In this document: in pieces, positions 18,133 through 34,170 of the stretch | How positions within the stretch are numbered: position 1 is the stretch's first letter | Layout of the letters: each line of letters begins with the position of its first letter | Origin: Candidatus Omnitrophota bacterium | GTDB lineage: Bacteria; Omnitrophota; Gorgyraeia; Gygaellales; Profunditerraquicolaceae | Assembly: GCA_041661605.1 (NCBI GenBank) | Contig: JBAZUE010000001.1 | Coordinates: 798,928-862,927, forward strand | Length of the DNA stretch: 64,000 bases | Direction of reading: 5' to 3' | The notes under the pieces: generated by a model | The model's database searches: none | Seen by the model: the letters and a program-made list of their open reading frames with translations, nothing else | What the model was told of the DNA's origin: nothing | Program-made: the position numbers and the translations under genes

Positions 18133-19578
18133 TTATATAACCGGCAGGTTACTTTGCCCCATCAAATACTTATCCATAAAATAGGCGCATCTCCTGCCTT
18201 CTGCGATAGCCCAAACTACCAGCGATTGCCCGCGCCTCATATCCCCGGCGGAGAATACCTTATTAACAGAAGTCATGTAATTATCACCAGCCATGACATT
18301 CCCCCGTGCGTCAAACTTAACATTAAGTTCACTGAGCAGGCCGCTTTGTTCGGGATGCAGGAAACCCACGGCGAGGATGACCATATCCGCCTTGATATCA
18401 AATTCGCTTTGCGGGATCTCCCGCATGACGGGGCATGTCTTAGCTTCTGCCGGCAGGAATTCAACTTTTACACAAGAGAGCTTCTTAACCTGGTTATTTT
18501 GCCCTATGAAACGCTTGGTTAATACCTGCCAATGCCGTTCTCCGCCCTCTTCATGGCTTGATGACACCTTTAAAATCAGGGGATAGCTTGGCCAGGGTTG
18601 CTGTGCAGGCCTGCATTCAGCCGGCCGCGGCATAACTTCAATCTGGACTATACAGGAAGCCCCCTGGCGATGGGCTGTGCCTACGCAATCAGCTCCGCTG
18701 TCTCCTCCGCCGATAACTACCACATTTTTGCCCCTGGCGTCAATTAAATCATTTTCCGGAATTTTTTCTCCGGATACCCGCCTGTTAGACTGCATAAGAT
18801 AATCCATGGCAAAATATATGCCGCTTAATTCCCTTCCTTCAATTTTAAGGTCCCTTGGAACGCGGCTGCCGCCTGCAAGGCAGACTGCGTCAAAATCAGC
18901 CAGAAGCTTATCCGCAGGATAATCTATCCCCACATTCACGCCCGTATTAAGAACAACCCCTTCTTTTCTCCATATATCAATACGCCTGTCCAGAATATGC
19001 TTTTCCAGTTTAAAATCAGGGATGCCGTAACGTAATATGCCGCCCGGTTTGCTGTCCCGTTCAAAAACAGTTACATTATGGCCTGCCCGGTTAAGCTGCG
19101 CGGCACAAGATAAGCCTGCTGGTCCGGAGCCGATAACTGCGACATTTTTATGCGTCCTGTTTTCTATACGATGCGGTTTGATTAAGCCGTTCTTAAAAGC
19201 TGTTTCTACGGCCGCAAGCTCATTCTCCCGTATAGTAACCGGTTCGTCGTTTAACCCAAGGACGCAGGAGTATTCACATAGCGCCGGACAGACCCTTCCT
19301 GTTATCTCAGGCAGATTATTGGTGGCATCCAATAACATAAACGCCTGCTTCCAGTTGCCGCGGAAAATATAATCATTCCATTCAGGTATATAGTTACCTA
19401 TCGGGCAGGCCCAGTGGCAAAACGGGGTTGAGCAATCCATGCAACGGGAGGCCTGCTCCTTTGATTGATTCTCCGGAGGCGCTTTATAGACATCCTTAAA
19501 ATCTTTAACCCGTTCGCAAACTTGCCTGTAAGGGCTTGATTGCCTGCCTAATTTAAGAAAACCTCTATCCTCACCCAT
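18133..19578 (-). CDS. gltD: glutamate synthase small subunit (NAD(P)H-dependent)
   Basis: 481 aa. N-terminal Cys clusters (C..C..C...C), the dinucleotide motif VAVIGSGPAGL, and a second motif VVVIGGGDSG. Confidence 0.92.
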   Translation of the reverse strand: MGEDRGFLKLGRQSSPYRQVCERVKDFKDVYKAPPENQSKEQASRCMDCSTPFCHWACPIGNYIPEWNDYIFRGNWKQAFMLLDATNNLPEITGRVCPALCEYSCVLGLNDEPVTIRENELAAVETAFKNGLIKPHRIENRTHKNVAVIGSGPAGLSCAAQLNRAGHNVTVFERDSKPGGILRYGIPDFKLEKHILDRRIDIWRKEGVVLNTGVNVGIDYPADKLLADFDAVCLAGGSRVPRDLKIEGRELSGIYFAMDYLMQSNRRVSGEKIPENDLIDARGKNVVVIGGGDSGADCVGTAHRQGASCIVQIEVMPRPAECRPAQQPWPSYPLILKVSSSHEEGGERHWQVLTKRFIGQNNQVKKLSCVKVEFLPAEAKTCPVMREIPQSEFDIKADMVILAVGFLHPEQSGLLSELNVKFDARGNVMAGDNYMTSVNKVFSAGDMRRGQSLVVWAIAEGRRCAYFMDKYLMGQSNLPVI

Positions 19579-22500: not shown

Positions 22501-24088
22501 TGGAATCTATAGGAGGATTAGTTACCTGAGCGAAAAGTTGTTTAAAATAACTATAAAGCATCTGCGGCTTCTTAGACAAAAAAGGATGCGGTATATCACA
22601 GCCCATAGAGCCCACAGGCTCCTTGCCTTCTTCGGCCATGGGCTTTATAACCATTTTTAAATCTTCCCTTGAATAACCAAAACTCTTAAGCCGCGTTATT
22701 AAATCTTTAGACTGACTGCCGCCGGCGCCGCTTTCAGGCAGCTTATCCAAATCGAGCATATTTTCCGAGTTCCATTTTCCATACGCGGAGCGTCCGGATA
22801 CAGCTTCTTTAATCTCGGAATCCTTGATTATGCGGCCGGATTTAGTATCAATGAAAAACATCTTACCAGGCTCAAGCCTGCCGGAAACTTTGATATCCTC
22901 AGGGGCTATATCCAAAACCCCTACTTCCGATGCCATTACCACAAAATCTTTTTTTGTCACAATATAGCGGGCAGGACGTAAACCATTCCTGTCCAGGATC
23001 GCGCCGATGTTTTTGCCGTCTGTAAAAGCAACCGCCGCCGGGCCGTCCCAAGGCTCCATAAAACAGGCGTGATATTTATAAAAATCAGCCAGGTTACGGC
23101 TCATAAGCTTATCATGCTCCCAGGCAGCAGGAATCAGCATCATCATGGCGTGCTCAAGAGACCTGCCGGATAGAGCCAAAAGCTCAAACAAGTTATCCAG
23201 CGCTGCGGAGTCGCTCCCTCCTTCAACTATGATCGGCTTTAACTTTTCTATATCCTTGCCGAATAGCTCGCTTGCAAGCAAACGTTCCCTGGCCCTGACT
23301 CCATTGATGTTACCGCGCAAGGTATTAATTTCGCCGTTATGCGCCAGGAAACGGAAAGGCTGCGCCAGATTCCAGGTAGGAAAAGTATTGGTGGAATAAC
23401 GTGAATGCACCAGGCACAAAACGCTTTTTATATCTTCGTTTTTTAAATCAAGAAAGAAATTGTCAATCTGCCTGGGCATAAGCAAGCCCTTATAAGATAA
23501 AGTACGGCAGGAGATATTGGTTATATAAAATGAATTCTTCTGTTTTAAACCGGACTCAAGTATTATATTTTCAACCCGCCTCCTGATAACATAAAGCTTT
23601 CTTTCAAAGCTCATTTCATCATCAATATCTTTATTTCTCCCGATAAAAATATGTTCGAAAACAGGCTGGGTATTTTTAGCTCCTTCCCCGATATCTGAAT
23701 CATCTATCGGGACACTTCGCCAGCCTAAAAGTGCCTGGCCCTCCTCTTTGATTATCTTCTTAAATGCCTCCTTACAAAAACTACGCTCACCGGGATCCTG
23801 GGGTAAAAAGATTAACCCCACGCCATAAGCGCCCAAATCCGGTAAATTAATATTCATACCCTGGCCTGCCGCTTTTTTGAAGAAATCATGCGGGATCTGG
23901 ATCAATATCCCCGCCCCGTCTCCTGTCTTAGGGTCTGAGCCGACTGCCCCGCGGTGTGACAGGCGATGCAAAACCTCAATCCCCTGCTTTACTATAGCAT
24001 TTGATTTCTGGCCTTTTATGTTGCAGACAAATCCTACCCCGCAGGAATCGTGCTCAAATGCAGGCTCATATAAACCTTGGGCTTTCAT
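19571..24088 (-). CDS. gltB: glutamate synthase large subunit
   Basis: 1505 aa. Ntn amidotransferase start with CGVGF, an FMN/Fe-S domain (SNTGEGGEDP, ISPPPHHDIYSIEDL) and a C-terminal GXGXG beta-helix. Confidence 0.95.
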   Translation of the reverse strand: MKAQGLYEPAFEHDSCGVGFVCNIKGQKSNAIVKQGIEVLHRLSHRGAVGSDPKTGDGAGILIQIPHDFFKKAAGQGMNINLPDLGAYGVGLIFLPQDPGERSFCKEAFKKIIKEEGQALLGWRSVPIDDSDIGEGAKNTQPVFEHIFIGRNKDIDDEMSFERKLYVIRRRVENIILESGLKQKNSFYITNISCRTLSYKGLLMPRQIDNFFLDLKNEDIKSVLCLVHSRYSTNTFPTWNLAQPFRFLAHNGEINTLRGNINGVRARERLLASELFGKDIEKLKPIIVEGGSDSAALDNLFELLALSGRSLEHAMMMLIPAAWEHDKLMSRNLADFYKYHACFMEPWDGPAAVAFTDGKNIGAILDRNGLRPARYIVTKKDFVVMASEVGVLDIAPEDIKVSGRLEPGKMFFIDTKSGRIIKDSEIKEAVSGRSAYGKWNSENMLDLDKLPESGAGGSQSKDLITRLKSFGYSREDLKMVIKPMAEEGKEPVGSMGCDIPHPFLSKKPQMLYSYFKQLFAQVTNPPIDSIREKLVMSLESFIGPERNILEETPGHSHKLMVKNPILANTEFEKIRNISVNNFKAKTVSILFKAAEGKKGFISSLERTCLETERAIEQGYSFIIISDRGADKDNISLPALLATSAVHQHLLIKAMRSQTALIVESAEPKEVHHFALLFGYGADCVNPYLAYEAVEYLSREKEINTESKAALKNYNKALSDGILKIISKMGISTLRSYRGAQIFEALGLSAEFVKKYFTGTVSRIGGVGLEGIIDETIERHRDAYAERRAGEVNLSSGGIYQWKKDGEFHLWNPESIAALQDATTNADYKRYKEFAELINNQSGNPTTLRSLLKFRKASPVSIDEVEPAENILKRFVTGAMSFGSISAGAHETIAIAMNRIGGKSNTGEGGEDPSRFIPLPNGDSKRSAIKQVASGRFGVTINYLVNADEIQIKIAQGAKPGEGGQLPGHKVSAIIAKTRYTTPGVTLISPPPHHDIYSIEDLAQLIFDLKNTNPNARVSVKLVSEAGVGTVAAGVAKGHADMILISGGDGGTGASPRSSIRYAGLPWELGISETHQTLLLNNLRSRVRLQADGQMRTGRDVAIAALLGAEEYGFCSAVLIVIGCVMLRHCNLNNCSVGVATQDDILQKRFKGKAEHIVNYFHFIVDELREIMASLGLRTINEMIGRTDLLELNQEIVPAKAKGIDYSRILYKPDLPENIERYCKVKRDSGLDSVLDRKLIKMWENCIKKNEPVRFSTGINNTDRATGAMLSGEVCKKYGDGALLEDTILCKFKGIAGQSFGAFLEKGITFELEGMANDYVGKGISGGRLIVYPDSSASYKPDENIIIGNTSFYGAISGEAYINGLAGERFCVRSSGLYAVVEGVGDHGCEYMTGGRVIVLGRTGNNFAAGMSGGIAYVYDEDATFKERCNLDMVELEKVKDSDKDTICNLLSNHFKYTKSGKARKILDNIQDQLKKFVKVMPLEYKRILEGAKVEKKLDVAEELDG

Positions 24089-24333
24089 GTCTTAACCTCT
24101 CTTAAAGAAATCCCCAGCTTTTTGATTTTAGCGCGCAAGGTATTTCTGTTTATACCCAGCAACCTGGCAGCCTTTATCTGATTGCCAAAAGTTATAATTA
24201 AGGTATTCGTAATCAATGATTTATCCAATGCATCCAACATTATATGATAGATCTTTCCTTCTTTGCCCTTTAGAAAGATCCGGTCTAACTCCAAAAGCGC
24301 TTTTTCTATTTCTCTTGCCTCTTCATCCATCAT
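24085..24333 (-). CDS. Fis-family small DNA-binding protein
   Basis: 82 aa. IYHIMLDALDKSLITNTLIITFGNQIKAARLLGINRNTLRAKIKKLGI parallels the E. coli Fis C-terminal half (LYELVLAEVEQPLL...[25 protein letters not shown]). Its TGA overlaps the gltB ATG as ATGA. Confidence 0.75.
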   Translation of the reverse strand: MMDEEAREIEKALLELDRIFLKGKEGKIYHIMLDALDKSLITNTLIITFGNQIKAARLLGINRNTLRAKIKKLGISLREVKT

Positions 24334-26641: not shown

Positions 26642-26695
26642 ATTCAAAAACAAACAGAGGCATTCTCATTAGTTATCGAGGAGAACGCCTCTGTT
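26642..26695 (-). terminator. intrinsic-terminator hairpin in the glnK1-glnN intergenic leader
   Basis: 15-bp stem with one mismatch (26653-26667 / 26681-26695), followed on the minus strand by TTTGTTTTT. It is ~100 nt after the glnK1 stop and ~45 nt before the glnN ATG. Confidence 0.65.
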
Positions 26696-26752
26696 CTCTT
26701 ACTTACATTGCTTAAAATTAAGCCATAAGATGCCTATAAATTAACTCACTAA

Positions 26753-26786
26753 TAATACAAGTAAGAAATAACCGGGTTTGGTAACC
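26753..26786 (-). promoter_or_regulatory. conserved 34-nt bipartite box, copy 1 (upstream of glnN)
   Basis: Plus strand TAATACAAGTAAG-N13-TGGTAACC. Minus strand GGTTACCA-N13-CTTACTTGTATTA. It lies 155 nt from the glnN ATG. Confidence 0.6.
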
Positions 26787-26790
26787 AATT

Positions 26791-27145: not shown

Positions 27146-28372
27146 TCATTCCAAAACTGTATACGCCCGTTCATGATGCTGGGTAAGGTCAAGCCCCATG
27201 CTTTCGTCTTTTTCACTTACACGCATCCTGAAAAACACATCAACAAGTTTATATATGATAAACGTAACTACAAATGTGTAAATTACCACAACTATGACCG
27301 CAAATGACTGAATGAAGAACTGTTTATAGTTGCCGTAAAATAAACCGTTAGCCCCTGAGTTATTGATTGCTTTTGAAGCGAATAACCCAGTCAACAATGT
27401 TCCCAATATTCCACCTACCCCATGCACGCCAAATGCGTCTAAAGAATCATCATATTTAAACTTAGGTTTAGTAATGCTGACAGCTATAAAACAAAGCACG
27501 CTTGCTGATACACCTATAATAATTGCCGACATAACGCTTACAAACCCCGAAGCAGGAGTAACAGTGGCAAGCCCGGCGATAGAACCGGTTACCATGCCAA
27601 AAACCGTAGGCTTACCGTTACGTATCCATTCTAAGAGCGCCCAGCTTAAACCCGCCGCAGCCGCAGCCGCGTTAGTCGCCACAAAAGCGTTAACAGCCAG
27701 GCCGTTTGCCGCCAAAGCGCTGCCGGCATTAAATCCAAACCAGCCAAACCAAAGTAAAGCGGTTCCCAAAACCACAAAAGGCAGATTATGCGGAGATGGG
27801 GTATGCTCCAGGTTCTTTCTCTTCCCCATAAAAATCGTAGTAACTAAAGCGGCGATACCCGCGCTGGTATGCACAACTATGCCTCCTGCGAAATCAAGGA
27901 CGCCTAAATTTTTAAGCCACCCTCCTTGTCCCCAAACCCAGTGGCAAATAGGATCATATACAAAAGTTGCCCAGAGCAGGATAAAAGCCAAAAACGCCGA
28001 GAACCTCATCCTTTCGGCAAAGGCGCCGATAATCAAAGCCGGGGTAATAACGGCAAACATCATCTGGAAAATCATAAAAGCCTGATGAGGTATAGTTGCA
28101 GAATACGCGGCATAAGGTTCTAATCCTACTCCGGCCAAACCCGCCCATTTAAAACCTCCCCAAAATATATTTCCCGGAGCAAAAGAAAGGCTATAACCAA
28201 AAAACATCCAATGCAAAGATAATAAACATAACGCGATAAAACATTGCATCAAAACACTCAAGACATTTTTGCGCCTGACCATGCCGCCGTAGAAAAAAGC
28301 AAGTCCGGGAGTCATTAGCATAACTAAAGCTGTAGAAAATAAAATGAAGACCGTATCTGCCCCATTAATCAT
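27146..28372 (-). CDS. amt: ammonium transporter (Amt family)
   Basis: 408 aa with 11 TM helices. Conserved DFAGGIVVH, the GWFGFNAGS signature and LDAFGVHGVGG (twin-His). Confidence 0.93.
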   Translation of the reverse strand: MINGADTVFILFSTALVMLMTPGLAFFYGGMVRRKNVLSVLMQCFIALCLLSLHWMFFGYSLSFAPGNIFWGGFKWAGLAGVGLEPYAAYSATIPHQAFMIFQMMFAVITPALIIGAFAERMRFSAFLAFILLWATFVYDPICHWVWGQGGWLKNLGVLDFAGGIVVHTSAGIAALVTTIFMGKRKNLEHTPSPHNLPFVVLGTALLWFGWFGFNAGSALAANGLAVNAFVATNAAAAAAGLSWALLEWIRNGKPTVFGMVTGSIAGLATVTPASGFVSVMSAIIIGVSASVLCFIAVSITKPKFKYDDSLDAFGVHGVGGILGTLLTGLFASKAINNSGANGLFYGNYKQFFIQSFAVIVVVIYTFVVTFIIYKLVDVFFRMRVSEKDESMGLDLTQHHERAYTVLE

Positions 28373-28388
28373 AAATCCTCCTGAATTT

Positions 28389-28420
28389 ATTTACACAACT
28401 GGTTAACCAATTGTGTAAAT
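28389..28420. promoter_or_regulatory. 32-bp near-perfect palindrome immediately upstream of the amt (27146-28372) RBS
   Basis: atttacacaaCtggttaaccaAttgtgtaaat, with 15 of 16 symmetric pairs. The right half, ttaaccaattgtgtaaa, recurs at 30205-30221 upstream of the second amt. Confidence 0.55.
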
Positions 28421-28424
28421 ACCG

Positions 28425-28474
28425 GATAAAAGAAAAGGCGCTCATAACAGCCTTTTAAGCTGCTATGAGCGCCT
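28425..28474 (-). terminator. intrinsic-terminator hairpin in the glnK2-amt1 intergenic leader
   Basis: Perfect 11-bp stem aggcgctcata / tatgagcgcct (28436-28446 / 28464-28474), followed on the minus strand by TTTTCTTTT. Confidence 0.65.
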
Positions 28475-28520
28475 ACAGTGCGCTATATAACTATAAACAC
28501 TACCTTGTGCCTAAGCTTAC

Positions 28521-28554
28521 TAATACAAGTAAGAGAGAAGCTAACCTGGTAACC
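28521..28554 (-). promoter_or_regulatory. conserved 34-nt bipartite box, copy 2 (upstream of amt-glnK)
   Basis: Plus strand TAATACAAGTAAG-N13-TGGTAACC, 149 nt from the amt ATG. Confidence 0.6.
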
Positions 28555-28564
28555 ATTAATTTAA

Positions 28565-28938: not shown

Positions 28939-30168
28939 TCATTCTAAAACAGTATACGCCCGTTCATGGTGCTGGGTAAGGTCAAGCCCCATAGCTTCAG
29001 ATTTCTCATCTACCCTTACGCCAATAAATAGATCAACTAACTTATAAATAATAAGCGTCACCACTGCCGTATAAACAATTGTTACCCCCACTGCTGCCAG
29101 TTGAACTAAGAATTGTTTAGGATTTCCGAAAAACAGGCCGTCAGCTCCCGCAGAGTTAACCAGCTTAGAAGCAAACAGTCCAGTAGCCAAAGCTCCCCAG
29201 ATCCCACCCACGCAATGCACTCCAAAAGCATCCAGGGAATCGTCATAACCAAATAACGGCTTAATCACAGTCACGGCAATAAAACACAATACGCTTACCA
29301 ATATGCCAATGATGATCGCCGGAATCACGCTGACAAAACCTGCCGCAGGAGTAATGGCGACTAAACCCGCCACAGCCCCGGAACATACGCCAAAGATCGT
29401 TGGCTTGCCGTTACGCAACCATTCAATCAAGGCCCAGCTCAAACCCGCCGCAGCCGCAGCTGTATTAGTTACCACAAAAGCATTCACAGCCAGGCCGTTT
29501 GCGGCCAAAGCGCTGCCGGCATTAAATCCAAACCAGCCAAACCATAATAACCCCGTGCCCAAAACCACAAAAGGCATATTATGCGGAGTAGGGACATTTT
29601 TATCAAGATTAGAGCGTTTACCCAAAACTATAGCCGTAACCAAAGCTGCTATCCCGGCGTTAATATGCACAACCGTGCCTCCGGCAAAATCAAGCGCGCC
29701 TATATTCCTTAACCAGCCGCCCATACCCCAAACCCAGTGGCATAACGGATCATATACAAATGTCGCCCAAAGTAAAGTAAAAACCAAAAACGCGGAGAAC
29801 TTCATTCTTTCGGCAAAAGCTCCAATGATCAAGGCAGGCGTGATAATTGCAAACATCATCTGGAAAACCATAAACGCCTGATGCGGGATTGTTCCGGCAT
29901 AGTCGGCGTATGGCTCTAAGCCTACGCCATTTAACCCCAACCATTGTAAACCGCCCCAGAATCCTTTAGATGGAGCAAATGACAGGCTATAGCCGATTAA
30001 CACCCACTGGATGCTTAAAACACATACAATAATGAAACATTGCATCAAAACACTTAAGACATTTTTCCGCCTGACCATGCCTCCGTAAAAGAAAGCCAAG
30101 GCCGGAGTCATCAGCAATACGAGTGCCGATGACATTAAAACCCACGCTGTATCTCCCGCATTAATCAT
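28939..30168 (-). CDS. amt: ammonium transporter (Amt family)
   Basis: 409 aa, a close paralogue of 27146-28372 with the same signature blocks. Confidence 0.93.
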   Translation of the reverse strand: MINAGDTAWVLMSSALVLLMTPALAFFYGGMVRRKNVLSVLMQCFIIVCVLSIQWVLIGYSLSFAPSKGFWGGLQWLGLNGVGLEPYADYAGTIPHQAFMVFQMMFAIITPALIIGAFAERMKFSAFLVFTLLWATFVYDPLCHWVWGMGGWLRNIGALDFAGGTVVHINAGIAALVTAIVLGKRSNLDKNVPTPHNMPFVVLGTGLLWFGWFGFNAGSALAANGLAVNAFVVTNTAAAAAGLSWALIEWLRNGKPTIFGVCSGAVAGLVAITPAAGFVSVIPAIIIGILVSVLCFIAVTVIKPLFGYDDSLDAFGVHCVGGIWGALATGLFASKLVNSAGADGLFFGNPKQFLVQLAAVGVTIVYTAVVTLIIYKLVDLFIGVRVDEKSEAMGLDLTQHHERAYTVLE

Positions 30169-30259
30169 TACCTTCCTCCTTTTTTTGTTAAAAGATACTC
30201 TTGATTAACCAATTGTGTAAAATCAAACTAAAAAAAGCCTGTCTTTCTCCTTCAAGCCC

Positions 30260-30439
30260 TTAATCTATGTTCAATTTTTCTTTAACCAACCGCGCGTAAA
30301 CCTTGTTTATCCGTCTTGTCTGCAGCCATCTCTCTATGGTAGTAATTTGAATATCTAGTTTCTTAGACAAATCATACAGGGTATAACCATTTTCCTCTTT
30401 TAACCGCAGTATTTTCCGGATTAATTCATTATCTATCAT
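30260..30439 (-). CDS. small helix-turn-helix protein (59 aa), not in the supplied ORF track
   Basis: My minus-strand translation is MIDNELIRKILRLKEENGYTLYDLSKKLDIQITTIERWLQTRRINKVYARLVKEKLNID*. GYTLYDLSKKLDIQITTIERWL is HTH-like. The ATG lies 6 nt after the glnK3 stop. No obvious SD. Confidence 0.5.
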   Translation of the reverse strand: MIDNELIRKILRLKEENGYTLYDLSKKLDIQITTIERWLQTRRINKVYARLVKEKLNID

Positions 30440-30445
30440 ATAATC

Positions 30446-30784
30446 TTATACAGCTATATCACCCTGTTCTCCTGTACGTATGCGTACAACGCCTTCTATA
30501 TCAGAGATAAAAATCTTACCGTCCCCTATTTCTCCTGTATAAGCAGCCTCTCTTATTGCCTTAACTGTTTTTTCAAGATCCTGGTCCTTCACTACAACTT
30601 CAATTTTTGTCTTCGGAAGCAATGCTAGCTTATATTCTTTTCCACGCCACTGCTGTTTCAAACCCTTCTGCTTACCATGCCCTTCAATTTCGGTAATCAT
30701 CATTCCAGGATAACCTACTTTTTCAAATGCGCTACATACCGCATCAAGCTTTGTCGGCCGGATTATCGCTTCTATCTTTTTCAT
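30446..30784 (-). CDS. glnK: P-II nitrogen regulatory protein (retains Tyr51)
   Basis: 112 aa. MKKIEAIIRPTKLDAV ... GHGKQKGLKQQWRGKEYKL ... GDGKIFI. Confidence 0.92.
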   Translation of the reverse strand: MKKIEAIIRPTKLDAVCSAFEKVGYPGMMITEIEGHGKQKGLKQQWRGKEYKLALLPKTKIEVVVKDQDLEKTVKAIREAAYTGEIGDGKIFISDIEGVVRIRTGEQGDIAV

Positions 30785-30847: not shown

Positions 30848-32419
30848 TTATTTAGAAATAGGGGTCTCAGAATTCCTGTCAAGTTTTACCCCCGCATAGC
30901 CCACAACTCCCATCTCAGGAACATCCAGCCCGTATATTTCTGCTTCAGGATCTGGCCTACTGCCGCAAACTACATCAATTAATTTGAAAATTATAAACGA
31001 GATTATCCCTACATAAATAATATTGGAGAACACACCTATGCATTGAGCAAAGAATTGCGAGGCATCGCCGTAGAACAAACCTTTTACAGTGCCGGCAACA
31101 CCATTCCACCCATCACCATAGGAGCCATCCGCAAATAACCCTAAGGCTAAACATCCGAAAGCGCCATTAACTCCATGTACGGATATAGCGCCTACCGGAT
31201 CATCCAGTTTAAGTTTTCCTTCGACAAAATATACAGATTCAACTACTAATACTCCGGAGATCAAACCGATAATGCAGGCGCTGATAGAATTAACAAATGC
31301 ACAAGGCGCGGTAATCGCTACAAGGCCCGCTAGCATGCCATTACACATCATACTTGGATCGGGTTTCTTGGTACGCACCAACCACATCCATAAGGTAGCT
31401 GCCATTGCTCCCGTAGCAGAAGCCAGCATTGTATTAACCGCAACTATTCCGATACGCAAATCAGTACCGGCTAAGGTTGAACCGGCATTAAAACCAAACC
31501 ACCCGAAAGCCAGGATAAATGTACCAACAACTGCCATGGGAATATTATGCCCAGGTATAGGATTAGCGCTGCCGTCCTTATTAAATTTGCCTATACGTGG
31601 CCCTACAATCCAGGCACCGATCAAAGCGATCACGCCTCCCGTGAGATGGACTACAGAGGAACCGGCAAAATCCACATGACCATGCCCCAACTGAAAATTC
31701 TGCCCTAACATTGCCAACCATCCGCCGCCCCATACCCAGTTACCGAATATCGGATAAATTATCGTCCCTACAAAAACTCCGTAAATGCAGAAAGAAAGGA
31801 ATTTCCATCTTTCAGCTAACGCACCGGTAGGAATTGTCGCTGTCGTATCCATAAATACCATTTGAAATAGAAAAAGCACATACACAGCAACATCGTAGGA
31901 AGAACCTTGAAGAAAAAACCCATTTAACCCGAATAAACCAAAAGGCTTTCCGAATAAATTAATTGTAAATTCATGATTCAAACCCCCATAGCCCCCCAAA
32001 GTACCCAGGGCGCCTATGCCACCAAACATTAAAGCAAAACCACAGACATAGAAACCAAGCATACCTAAAGGATAAATCAAGAAATTCATACCCATAGTAT
32101 GGGCGACATTCTTGGCGCGGGTCAGGCCTGTTTCTACCATAGCAAATCCCGGTTGCATAAACATTACCAAAAATCCCGCAACAAGTGTCCAAACAAAGTT
32201 AATTGCCACCTTATTATGCCCAACAGTATTAGCTAATTCATCCAAAGTAGGCTTACCTGCTACAGCCGCAGACACATCACTGGCTGTTCCGGTAGCTGCT
32301 CCGCTGGCATCAGGGCCACCGGCAAAAAGGGATACTACCGATAAGGCAAAAAATACAAACATCATGCATAAAATTATCAAACTATTCTTTTTTAAAAACT
32401 GTCTCATCGTTATTTTCAT
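30848..32419 (-). CDS. amt: ammonium transporter (Amt family) with signal peptide and a long N-terminal extension
   Basis: 523 aa. Has DFAGSSVVH, GWFGFNAGS and ISVHGVNGAFG. It is divergent from the other two copies. Confidence 0.9.
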   Translation of the reverse strand: MKITMRQFLKKNSLIILCMMFVFFALSVVSLFAGGPDASGAATGTASDVSAAVAGKPTLDELANTVGHNKVAINFVWTLVAGFLVMFMQPGFAMVETGLTRAKNVAHTMGMNFLIYPLGMLGFYVCGFALMFGGIGALGTLGGYGGLNHEFTINLFGKPFGLFGLNGFFLQGSSYDVAVYVLFLFQMVFMDTTATIPTGALAERWKFLSFCIYGVFVGTIIYPIFGNWVWGGGWLAMLGQNFQLGHGHVDFAGSSVVHLTGGVIALIGAWIVGPRIGKFNKDGSANPIPGHNIPMAVVGTFILAFGWFGFNAGSTLAGTDLRIGIVAVNTMLASATGAMAATLWMWLVRTKKPDPSMMCNGMLAGLVAITAPCAFVNSISACIIGLISGVLVVESVYFVEGKLKLDDPVGAISVHGVNGAFGCLALGLFADGSYGDGWNGVAGTVKGLFYGDASQFFAQCIGVFSNIIYVGIISFIIFKLIDVVCGSRPDPEAEIYGLDVPEMGVVGYAGVKLDRNSETPISK

Positions 32420-32442: not shown

Positions 32443-33246
32443 TCAAAAGTTAATATCCAGTTGGAAGGTAATCGTATCAGTAAGATTGCGATTATTATAA
32501 ATATCATAAGCAAGTATTGCCGAAATATCCTTGGTAAAACTCCAGGCAAAACCTGCATTCAAAGCGCCATAGGAAGACTGCGTACCCTGATAATCAACGC
32601 ACAGCCACAATTTATCGCTAATCTCTGTCATTGTGCGCTCCCAGGCTACCATTGGACCAGCATTATCCCGCAAACCTTGCTTATCTCTAAGCAACCTTCC
32701 GTTACCCACAAAATAACCGCCCGAAACTCTTCCCAGATTAACCTTACCTACATTAACTGTTTTGGCAATCCTGCCATACCAAACATTATTATTGGTTCTA
32801 TTGGCCCTTGTGCCCATATCGTATGAGCCAACTGCAATAGCGGGCATATCTTTAAAATAAGCGCCCTCAGGTACTCCTAACTTAAAATGAAAATACCAGG
32901 GAGTCGAATCATAAAATGATCCTAAGCCTTTTTTATAATCAAATCCTGTTTCAGCCATAATCTTGCCTAATGGATACCATAATTTACCAAGCAGATTCTC
33001 CTCCTGTTTATCAGATAAAAGACTAAAAGTCGGGCCCCAAACCTGCAAAACATAGTTATGCTGATCATAATTATCAGCATTGGTACCTTTGCTGGTTGTA
33101 GGAGCATAAATATCGTATCCTATATGGATCTTCTTATAGGGCTGGATATCGGTAGACGGAGCCCAAATAAGCGTTGAAGGGGTGGCATATACATTAGATA
33201 AAACAAAAGTAAAGAAAACCGCTAAAATCAATCTAATTCGCTTCAC
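32443..33246 (-). CDS. putative outer-membrane beta-barrel (porin-like) protein
   Basis: I chose the GTG start at 33246 (AAGGAGAG upstream), which gives the signal peptide (M)KRIRLILAVFFTFVLSNVYA. The sequence has alternating beta-strand character and ends in the C-terminal F of LDINF. Its stop is 23 nt upstream of the amt3 start. Confidence 0.45.
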   Translation of the reverse strand: MKRIRLILAVFFTFVLSNVYATPSTLIWAPSTDIQPYKKIHIGYDIYAPTTSKGTNADNYDQHNYVLQVWGPTFSLLSDKQEENLLGKLWYPLGKIMAETGFDYKKGLGSFYDSTPWYFHFKLGVPEGAYFKDMPAIAVGSYDMGTRANRTNNNVWYGRIAKTVNVGKVNLGRVSGGYFVGNGRLLRDKQGLRDNAGPMVAWERTMTEISDKLWLCVDYQGTQSSYGALNAGFAWSFTKDISAILAYDIYNNRNLTDTITFQLDINF

Positions 33247-33260
33247 TGTCTCTCTCCTTC

Positions 33261-33318
33261 CCAATAAAAAAGCGTCTTTTAGAATCCATCTTGGATTAAG
33301 AAAGACGCCTGCGTCTTT
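33261..33318 (-). promoter_or_regulatory. candidate terminator/antiterminator element in the OMP-amt3 leader
   Basis: On the minus strand AAAGACGC (33318-33311), GCGTCTTT (33308-33301) and AAAGACGC (33279-33272), followed by TTTTTT. The middle segment can pair with either flank. Confidence 0.45.
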
Positions 33319-33320
33319 TG

Positions 33321-33354
33321 AAAACAAAAAAAGCGTTCTATTCTTATAGAACGC
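33321..33354 (-). terminator. intrinsic-terminator hairpin downstream of the sigma gene, in the OMP-amt3 leader
   Basis: 9-bp stem gcgttctat / atagaacgc (33333-33341 / 33346-33354), followed on the minus strand by TTTTTTTGTTTT. Confidence 0.65.
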
Positions 33355-33390
33355 CTATGTTTAATTCTTACACTTCAATGTGCCCTACAT

Positions 33391-33424
33391 TAATACAAGT
33401 AAAGAATGCTTGAAACTGGTAACT
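33391..33424 (-). promoter_or_regulatory. conserved 34-nt bipartite box, copy 3 (upstream of OMP-amt-glnK)
   Basis: Plus strand TAATACAAGTAAA-N13-TGGTAACT. It overlaps the sigma-gene stop codon and lies 145 nt from the GTG at 33246. Confidence 0.55.
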
Positions 33425-33947
33425 AAATCTTATCCAGGTGCTTTTGAGACTTGGCCCTGATCTTGCGCATCATCTTTACTACGCTGACATGGGATACACT
33501 CATACGCCTGCCTATATCCCTGGTAGTCAACCCCTGGCTGAAATAAGTAAGCAGCCTTTTTTCTCTTGGATTAAAACCATTATCCCTGATGCTTTGAGCT
33601 AAAAGTTTATTATGCAAATCCTGCCGGCAATCCGGGCAAGCCCAATATTCACCAAGGACATCCTCCATAGTTGCCTCATCATCAGTATTCAAGGCAGCAT
33701 CCATACTGATAATATTTGAACGCTCATTAATTTTGCGTATATAGTTCTTCAGGTGGAAATAACATCCTTGCAAAATATAGCTGTCTGTTTTATCGCCAAG
33801 CTTACCCTCCAAGAAACTGCTCCAAAGATGGATTGTCGCCTCTTGATATAGATCATCATGATTAAACGACCGGTAATGCCCGTTTAGCCGGTAAGCAATC
33901 CTTTTTATGGTTGGCGATAACTTTTGGTACAACTCTTCAAAACACAT
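33423..33947 (-). CDS. sigma-70 family RNA polymerase sigma factor (small, ECF-like, regions 2 and 4 only)
   Basis: 174 aa. The region-2-like segment is DDLYQEATIHLW...YILQGCYFHLKNYIRK. The region-4 HTH is REKRLLTYFSQGLTTRDIGRRMSVSHVSVVKMMRKIRAK. Confidence 0.7.
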   Translation of the reverse strand: MCFEELYQKLSPTIKRIAYRLNGHYRSFNHDDLYQEATIHLWSSFLEGKLGDKTDSYILQGCYFHLKNYIRKINERSNIISMDAALNTDDEATMEDVLGEYWACPDCRQDLHNKLLAQSIRDNGFNPREKRLLTYFSQGLTTRDIGRRMSVSHVSVVKMMRKIRAKSQKHLDKI

Positions 33948-34009
33948 GTTCTAACCCTCATGTTACCCCACGCTAATAGGTATTGCGTGGGTATCCGCCA
34001 AGTGGGCGG

Positions 34010-34054
34010 AAAAAGAAAAACGTCCCTGCCCTGTTTTTCAAGGGCTAAGGACGT
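34010..34054 (-). terminator. terminator-like hairpin 2 in the sigma-gene leader
   Basis: acgtcc..gccct / agggc..ggacgt, followed on the minus strand by TTTTTCTTTTT. Confidence 0.5.
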
Positions 34055-34070
34055 CTTAGTCCGGTAAAAC

Positions 34071-34105
34071 AAAAAAAATCTTCTAACGAAAATTCCGCCA
34101 GAAGA
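34071..34105 (-). terminator. terminator-like hairpin 1 in the sigma-gene leader
   Basis: On the minus strand tcttct-N15-agaaga followed by eight T. The stem is weak and the U-tract strong. Confidence 0.4.
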
Positions 34106-34142
34106 CTTCAATGTCTTATGTTACAGCGCTGTATACATTTAA

Positions 34143-34170
34143 AATATACCATATCCCCTGAAATTGTCAA
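34143..34170 (-). promoter_or_regulatory. sigma70-like promoter of the sigma-factor gene
   Basis: On the minus strand TTGACA-N16-TATATT. The perfect 12-bp palindrome TACAGCGCTGTA (34122-34133) lies just downstream of the predicted start. Confidence 0.55.

Follow-up and report, generated by a model that had tools for sequence, protein, structure and literature searches.

The leader of a nitrogen operon in a Candidatus Omnitrophota bacterium is probably a protein-dependent transcription attenuator of the ANTAR type, built twice in series. It lies in a stretch of 64,000 nucleotides (nt), here called the window, that spans positions 798,928 to 862,927 of contig JBAZUE010000001.1 (GenBank assembly GCA_041661605.1). 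The operon encodes a 267-aa secreted protein, which is probably an outer-membrane β-barrel and is here called OMP (outer-membrane protein), followed by an ammonium transporter (amt) and a P-II protein (glnK). The mechanism itself is already known, and the Omnitrophota leader is a new example of this nitrogen-control switch, in a tandem form, that is apparently nested in a sigma-factor cascade. Between the gene of a sigma factor of the extracytoplasmic function (ECF) type and the OMP gene, the leader is composed of the following elements, where A1 and G4 denote an A in the first and a G in the fourth position of a hairpin loop:

33388..33425, minus strand: box copy 3, with GTTACC at 33423..33418, 14 nt, TTTACTTG at 33403..33396 and then TATTAA (repeat family D6)
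33370..33383, minus strand: hairpin P1, GCAC[AUUGAA]GUGU, a hexaloop with A1 and G4 (24-species alignment)
33350..33361, minus strand: mini-hairpin P2', AAC[AUAGGC]GUU (sequence conservation)
33321..33356, minus strand: terminator T1, AGGCGTTCTAT-AAGA-ATAGAACGCTT, with an 11-bp stem at 33356..33331, the loop AAGA and the U-tract TTTTTGTTTT at 33330..33321 (terminator scan)
33301..33318, minus strand: antiterminator hairpin P2, AAAGAC[GCAGGC]GUCUUU, -6.6 kcal/mol (17-species alignment)
33265..33310, minus strand: terminator T2, with an outer stem pairing 33310..33301 with 33279..33270, the inner hairpin AAUCCA-AGA-UGGAUU at 33297..33283 and a U-tract (U6, A, UU), -17.6 kcal/mol

For comparison, one genome per species was searched with aligned sequences of the 267-aa protein, which gave 80 loci (numbered with the prefix L), 38 from Omnitrophota and 42 from other phyla. 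Thirty of the 38 Omnitrophota loci carry the box and a recognisably homologous leader; according to our own terminator finder and inspection by eye, both T1 and T2 are found in 19 of them, as in the window, a single hybrid module in five and T1 only in six. In the first module, P1 is 94.8% paired across 24 species, with compensatory AU<->GC changes in two pairs. Its closing C–G pair and its hexaloop are present in all 24 species (L033, whose P1 loop has 9 nt, was kept out of this alignment), with A (19) or G (5) at the first loop position and G at the fourth without exception. A linker of 8 nt (33369..33362), which ranges from about 4 to 13 nt across the alignment, leads to P2', whose loop bases 3–6 and 3' arm fall inside the 5' arm of T1. 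A1 and G4 of the P2' loop are each conserved in 23 of the 24 species, the inner two pairs are nearly invariant and the third forms in 13. T1 itself, with 4 of its 11 base pairs being G–C and followed by UUUUUGUUUU, qualifies as an intrinsic terminator; across the same species it is 88.5% paired, and six of its pairs show compensatory changes.

The second module is built around a repeated arm, in which AAAGACGC (33318..33311), the dinucleotide AG and GCGTCTTT (33308..33301) are followed by a second AAAGACGC (33279..33272) and six T residues. Loop bases 3–6 and the 3' arm of P2 form the 5' arm of T2, which can instead pair with the upstream copy of its own 3' arm. Among 17 species, the GAC/GUC core of P2 and G4 of its loop are invariant and the fourth pair is always paired; the bases directly upstream are not conserved. 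The closing pair of the loop is C–G in P1, P2' and P2 alike. T2, also an intrinsic terminator, consists of a 10-bp outer stem and a 6-bp inner stem followed by U6. Its outer stem is 100% paired (169 cells across the 17 species) with two compensatory pairs, and the RNAalifold consensus predicts it independently. The apical hairpin of T2 (33283-33297) has an invariant TCC/GGA, and in about half of the species it carries an AnnGnn hexaloop (AGAGAT, AGCGAC, AGTGTT and ATTGCT are examples), the window having a 5-nt loop; this hairpin may provide another ANTAR contact, as a partner for the hairpin of module 2, or may do no more than cap the stem stably. The apical loop of T1, tried as a partner hairpin for module 2, was rejected, its length and sequence not being conserved.

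An earlier first-pass annotation, made from the letters of the DNA, had already described this region as a leader rather than just a gene end, with a box overlapping the stop codon of the sigma gene (TAG, 33425..33423) and two successive intrinsic terminators, all of which is borne out, and the terminators recur in related species. T1 is where it had been placed, apart from a start coordinate about 2 nt off (the stem occupies 33356..33331). The choice between terminator and antiterminator that was proposed for the repeated arm at T2 is conserved in the 17 species, and the alignment thus upholds the alternative pairing and both terminators. The exact duplication of the 8-mer, taken as a hallmark, did not survive the same comparison: the downstream arm is AAAGACGC in 7 of the 17 species and AAAGGCGC in 10, and therefore the identity is incidental, conservation applying to the alternative pairing. 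Nor is the module a self-contained, 'engineered-looking' attenuator, since P2 (-6.6 kcal/mol) cannot compete alone with T2 (-17.6 kcal/mol). What had been missed is the antiterminator of T1, formed by P1 and P2' with their AnnGnn hexaloops, and the fact that the P2 loop is a conserved hexaloop with an invariant G4.

The energetics point to an external factor. T1 reaches -13.4 kcal/mol against -2.9 kcal/mol for P1 plus P2', of which P2' alone, at 0 kcal/mol, is not stable, and T2 reaches -17.6 kcal/mol against -8.7 kcal/mol for P2 plus the inner hairpin. The minimum-energy structure of the leader contains T1 and the long T2, and the fold has a z of -4.06 relative to dinucleotide shuffles. Because the two terminators outweigh the antiterminator hairpins, the default state is taken to be termination at both sites, with a stabilising factor needed for read-through. 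The conserved, mutually exclusive pairing of P2 and T2, and a leader more structured than its shuffles, are also what would be expected from a self-contained cis-acting attenuator or riboswitch that responds to a metabolite, to translation of a leader peptide or to polymerase speed without any protein. Such a device is very unlikely here. The antiterminators are 9–15 kcal/mol weaker than the terminators; the only start with a reading frame in the leader, ATG 33390, is directly followed by TAG; no Rfam family reaches its threshold (best matches at an expectation value, E, of about 1); the conserved elements are three tiny hairpins and the terminators, without a conserved core of the size of a ligand pocket; and a single hybrid module suffices in the close relatives L001, L018 and L020. 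The leader does resemble the ribosome-mediated attenuators of the trp and his leaders in its central strand, which can pair upstream or downstream, the latter pairing being the terminator, but it differs from them in having no leader peptide, no regulatory codons and an upstream hairpin that is too weak without a factor. It also resembles tandem attenuators and tandem riboswitches in placing two serial termination decisions ahead of the first gene, an arrangement from which less leakiness and a steeper response are expected, with the difference that both modules here apparently answer to one protein and not to two ligands.

The nature of the factor is suggested by the hairpins themselves. Published ANTAR targets are pairs of small stem-loops, each with a hexanucleotide loop that has A in the first and G in the fourth position; 5-12 nt separate the two hairpins, and the second one overlaps an intrinsic terminator. 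They are found mostly upstream of genes for P-II proteins, ammonium transporters, glutamine synthetases and glutamate synthases, and a single organism may have up to 13 such attenuators in six transcription units (PMC3369931). Module 1 shows every one of these RNA features: two hexaloops, A1 and G4, the linker and the exclusivity with the terminator. Module 2 has a single hexaloop, which is the minimal site, and half of the A1/G4 feature. Exclusivity with an intrinsic terminator holds for both P2'/T1 and P2/T2. The structure of EutV bound to RNA has revealed that the minimal ANTAR site is a single hexaloop, whose G4 is flipped out onto a tyrosine, and that the protein binds P1 and then P2 successively (PMC8934654). 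A second module with one hairpin fits this picture, because the minimal site is one hexaloop and binding is successive. The leader is thus comparable to the targets of EutV (eutP of Enterococcus faecalis), NasR (nasF) and AmiR (amiE) (PMC3369931, PMC8934654), which share with it short hexaloop hairpins with A1/G4 and a C–G closing pair, the 5-12 nt linker, a second hairpin sharing the 5' arm of the terminator and the position ahead of nitrogen genes, and for which several attenuators per regulon are already known. It differs from them in having two attenuators in series, the second with one hexaloop whose first position is usually G or U; in its putative promoter, which is a phylum-specific box and not a sigma70 or sigma54 promoter; and in its likely regulator, a GAF-ANTAR one-component protein instead of an ANTAR protein controlled by REC, NIT or AmiC.

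This regulator is proposed from the relatives. In L001, L003, L004, L006, L019, L022 and L029, the sigma gene directly follows a gene with GAF and ANTAR domains (Pfam); eight more Omnitrophota loci have such genes in other places, and the family is very abundant in the phylum and strongly conserved there. Rv1626, EutV and NasR can be aligned with the ANTAR domain of the L001 protein, in which the Arg, Lys and Tyr residues that hold G4 in EutV are conserved. Its GAF domain resembles the GAF domains of NifA and PtsP, from which a nitrogen-status signal is inferred. The GAF-ANTAR class was uncharacterised as of PMC3369931, and a literature search combining Omnitrophota and ANTAR returned only matches to 'Antarctic'. 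In the genome studied here, a divergent SurA-like gene stands, through rearrangement, at the place of the relatives' GAF-ANTAR gene. The hexaloops remain intact in four leaders of the window, which is an indirect argument that the regulator is still present in this genome.

A published counterpart is found in Geobacter sulfurreducens, where the operon formed by a hypothetical protein (a GSU0938 homologue), glnK and amtB has a premature terminator that is overridden by the REC-ANTAR protein GnfR via a conserved CAGGCAANGGCGCC, and where GnfR antitermination acts also on nif leaders (PMC2995071). The first gene of that operon is homologous to the OMP gene (38-47% identity, tblastn), and in both cases ammonium-transporter and P-II genes follow. 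Upstream of the OMP homologue, the Geobacteraceae loci present a sigma54 promoter, the hairpins GCAC[RAnGRn]GUGC and GGC[AAnGGC]GCC, and a terminator, and in L043, L046 and L073 a REC-ANTAR gene is adjacent to it. The loop core common to Geobacter and Omnitrophota is nnGGC followed by G (AnnGGC in Omnitrophota), and the covariance model of module 1, R1, matches Geobacter leaders weakly (L064, E 0.047). The inspected Geobacter loci combine a sigma54 promoter (TGGCAC-N5-TGTGCT) with a REC-ANTAR protein of the two-component kind, and each leader has one terminator. Their Omnitrophota counterparts combine the box, or a promoter of sigma70 type, with GAF-ANTAR proteins, and two or three terminators are common.

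Several observations weigh against the ANTAR assignment. The regulator is assumed in this genome and not seen: neither a regular-expression search nor tblastn with six ANTAR proteins finds an ANTAR-domain gene in the 64-kb window, and none of the best 120 of 7183 GAF-ANTAR database matches lies on the source contig, a result that is uninformative given that there are 7183. The P2 loop begins with G in 13 species, A in 3 and C in 1, so that the usual base is G instead of A, and G1 and C6 of this loop can pair with each other to leave a tetraloop. P2', with a stem of only 2-3 bp, and P2 are both supported by sequence conservation and show no covariation. Module 2 has no consistent partner hairpin within 5-12 nt, and in the EutV system a linker lengthened by 20 nt abolishes antitermination (PMC8934654), which bears on this module. 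Rfam 15 gives no match in the whole window at gathering thresholds, and so no independent family call; in 32800-34000, with E allowed up to 10, its matches are at chance level (E 0.88-6.8), far below thresholds. The missing gene, the second-module loops that begin with G or U and not with A, and the lack of covariation in P2' and P2 would also suit another RNA-binding protein, or a small RNA, that recognises C-[RnnGnn]-G hairpins and stabilises them within the same leader logic. This variant is unlikely: the A1/G4 hexaloop, the C–G closing pair, the 8-nt linker and the terminator overlap together are a specific ANTAR signature, the leader and GAF-ANTAR genes show synteny in relatives, antitermination of the homologous operon in Geobacter depends on GnfR, and the residues that contact G4 are conserved.

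T1 lies 67 nt past the sigma-gene stop codon and would also halt read-through from that gene, as expected if T1, or T1 together with T2, were plain constitutive termination that ends or insulates the sigma gene, the OMP operon having a promoter further downstream and the likeness to ANTAR hairpins being incidental. The first-pass annotation had named a T1 that simply ends the sigma gene as part of the outcome that would overturn it. T1 is retained, however, in L010, L012 and L027, which have a different gene upstream, and therefore it belongs to the leader and is not merely the sigma terminator; T2 persists in these loci as well. Moreover, the conserved box precedes P1, T1 and T2, in this order, and conservation extends to P1 and to the arm of P2 outside the terminator, neither of which a terminator needs. 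A promoter scan of the minus strand from 33330 to 33246 is negative for sigma70-like sites. The spacer between T1 and T2 is variable, with repeat insertions in some species, and the same arrangement stands ahead of the sigma gene itself, just past its own promoter. Plain terminators are accordingly a highly improbable explanation.

The box can be read as the promoter of the adjacent ECF-type sigma factor. According to a repeat search it occurs exactly three times in the window, each time on the minus strand within the nitrogen cluster. The regular expression G[TC]TACC-N12-18-[TC]ACTT[GA] matches only Omnitrophota loci, always on the gene strand, and has no match in the 42 loci of other phyla; the form GTTACC-N14/15-TTTACTTG is nearly invariant, strand-specific and co-occurs with the sigma gene, whose orthologues adjoin the box on its upstream side in most of the fetched Omnitrophota loci. 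Where box and sigma gene are both missing, TTGACA-N17-TAnAnT is found at the same position relative to P1. Since the box is confined to Omnitrophota and to the gene strand, accompanies the sigma gene and is replaced by a TTGACA promoter in its absence, it is a candidate for the site that this sigma factor recognises. On inspection of the sequence, the GG/GC spacing does not fit a sigma54 promoter, and the spacing from GTTACC to TAnnAA is too long for a standard sigma70 promoter. In L005, L007, L008 and L030, which have neither box nor sigma gene, the region of about 300 nt upstream of the OMP gene has the canonical TTGACA-N17-TAnAnT followed by three successive terminators; the hairpin GAC[AnnGAT]GTC is kept where the transcript would start, and AAGAC[AnAGRC]GTCTT ahead of the third terminator.

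The proposed model starts with transcription from the box by RNA polymerase that would carry the sigma factor encoded just upstream. By default the nascent leader would fold into T1 and, in any transcript that reads through, into T2, so that little polymerase would get to the operon. Nitrogen limitation would activate a dimeric ANTAR-domain antiterminator, whose version in the relatives is the GAF-ANTAR one-component protein, the signal possibly being glutamine or 2-oxoglutarate perceived via the GAF domain. This protein would bind the P1 hexaloop and then the P2' hexaloop, sequestering bases of the 5' arm of T1, and would next bind the P2 hexaloop hairpin, sequestering the 5' arm of T2. Binding to the hexaloops would in this way prevent termination. 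Both terminators would need to be overridden, and the serial pair would lower the basal level and sharpen the response.

The number of modules appears to be evolutionarily labile. It is 1, 2 or 3 among close relatives, and the closest one, L001 (91% protein identity), has a hybrid module. In the five loci with a hybrid (L001, L018, L020, L038 and L013), the two modules are joined at AGGCGT, which is common to the 5' arms of T1 and T2, which points to recombination between AGGCGT repeats as the way in which modules come and go.

Related leaders are found elsewhere in the window, the first of them ahead of the sigma gene:

33948..34170, minus strand: leader of the sigma gene (sequence, promoter and terminator scan, hexaloop-plus-terminator scan; conserved in relatives)
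34143..34170, minus strand: promoter of the sigma gene, sigma70-type, TTGACA at 34170..34165, N16, TATATT at 34148..34143 (promoter scan)
34133..34122, minus strand: P1 of the sigma leader, UAC[AGCGCU]GUA, followed by a four-base linker
34117..34102, minus strand: P2 of the sigma leader, AAGAC[AUUGAA]GUCUU, overlapping a terminator at 34109..34075
34062..34049, minus strand: third hairpin of the sigma leader, GGAC[UAAGAC]GUCC, overlapping a second terminator at 34054..34020
28428..28555, minus strand: box copy 2 and leader of the amt gene at 28372..27146 (R1 match at 28428-28522, E 0.0046)
28509..28498, minus strand: P1 of the amt leader, CAC[AAGGUA]GUG (sequence)
28484..28468, minus strand: hairpin of the amt leader, AGCGC[ACUGUAG]GCGCU, overlapping a terminator
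26650..26787, minus strand: box copy 1 and leader of glnN, a type III glutamine synthetase gene (Pfam GSIII_N; R1 match at 26650-26713, E 0.0014)
26698..26681, minus strand: hairpin of the glnN leader, GAGAAC[AGAGGC]GUUCUC, overlapping a terminator at 26696..26652

The sigma leader has the same tandem grammar as the OMP leader, a dual followed by a single hexaloop site, and keeps it in relatives, which suggests that antitermination of this kind also governs the sigma factor. In a simple scan of the minus strand, three dual-hexaloop-plus-terminator sites are found where shuffles predict 0.17, one of them, at 18298 inside gltD, probably being a chance match; single hexaloop-plus-terminator sites number 9 against 2.6 expected. 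The three boxes mark one regulon. A further-reaching arrangement, to which we give somewhat less than even credence, is a two-tier nitrogen circuit in which the GAF-ANTAR antiterminator gates the ECF-type sigma gene and also every operon transcribed from the GTTACC...TTTACTTG box; these operons may be OMP-amt-glnK, amt-glnK and glnN-gltBD. If true, it would be a coherent feed-forward AND gate that replaces NtrBC/sigma54 or GnfLM/GnfKR, and it has not been described before. In addition, leader RNAs that end at the terminators, about 65 and 125 nt long and still with free hexaloops, might titrate the antiterminator in such a circuit.

More generally, the leader offers a concrete, testable model of how ammonium uptake and assimilation are switched in an uncultivated, widespread phylum. 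On this reading ANTAR antitermination reaches into Omnitrophota and takes in the GAF-ANTAR architecture, so far uncharacterised. Leaders with one, two or three terminators and with dual or single hexaloops occur naturally by the dozen and are available for testing 'successive binding' and the value of serial attenuators.

The genes that flank the leader are part of a nitrogen-assimilation supercluster on the minus strand, which comprises the sigma gene, the leader, the secreted protein, amt and P-II, followed by a second amt/P-II pair, a third pair, glnN, gltB and gltD:

33423..33947, minus strand: ECF-type sigma-70 family sigma factor gene, 174 aa (Pfam Sigma70_r2 and GerE; NCBIfam TIGR02937)
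32443..33246, minus strand: OMP gene, encoding the 267-aa secreted protein, first in the controlled operon, with start GTG 33246
32419..30848, minus strand: amt, second gene of the operon (Pfam)
30784..30446, minus strand: glnK/P-II, third gene of the operon (Pfam)

The sigma protein matches NCBIfam TIGR02937 (sigma70-ECF) over its full length with 46.2 bits (cut-off 42.9). The secreted protein has no family in Pfam or NCBIfam and 1377 homologues, mostly in Omnitrophota. Its AlphaFold model consists of a signal helix and 11 strands with a low mean confidence (predicted local distance difference test, pLDDT, 55.8), a value too low for a fold search. Its start at GTG 33246 is preceded by the ribosome-binding site GGAGAG and followed by a signal peptide. 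The OMP call in the database, P0001 (294 aa), starts instead at TTG 33327, within the U-tract of T1, and so would take in T2; this TTG has no ribosome-binding site, the homologues have mostly 263-283 aa, and the database call is probably 27 codons too long.

Other features of the cluster were recorded alongside. The amt of the operon (30848-32419, minus strand) encodes 523 aa, with the Ammonium_transp domain from residue 76, and its N-terminal extension has no counterpart in the two remaining amt genes, of 408 and 409 aa. Two small open reading frames on the minus strand encode a helix-turn-helix protein of 59 aa with no family, between P-II and amt (30260-30439), and an 82-aa protein with a Fis-type HTH_8 domain, between glnN and gltB (24085-24333). 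An element resembling repetitive extragenic palindromes, made of the two hairpins CCGCCCACTTGGCGG and then ACCCACGCAATACCTATTAGCGTGGGGT, is found at 33964-34009 (minus strand), and a similar one, GCCSnnnnnGGSCACACC...GGGTGT, lies between the terminators in the leaders of L009, L011, L016, L024, L026 and L029. Finally, the palindrome TTTACACAATTGGTTAACCAGTTGTGTAAA occurs just ahead of the amt gene at 28372 (28390-28419, minus strand), with a half-copy, TTTTACACAATTGGTTAATCAAG, ahead of the amt gene at 30168 (30200-30222, minus strand); it may be a DNA operator, and its centre, GGTTAACC, is similar to the GGTTACC of the box.

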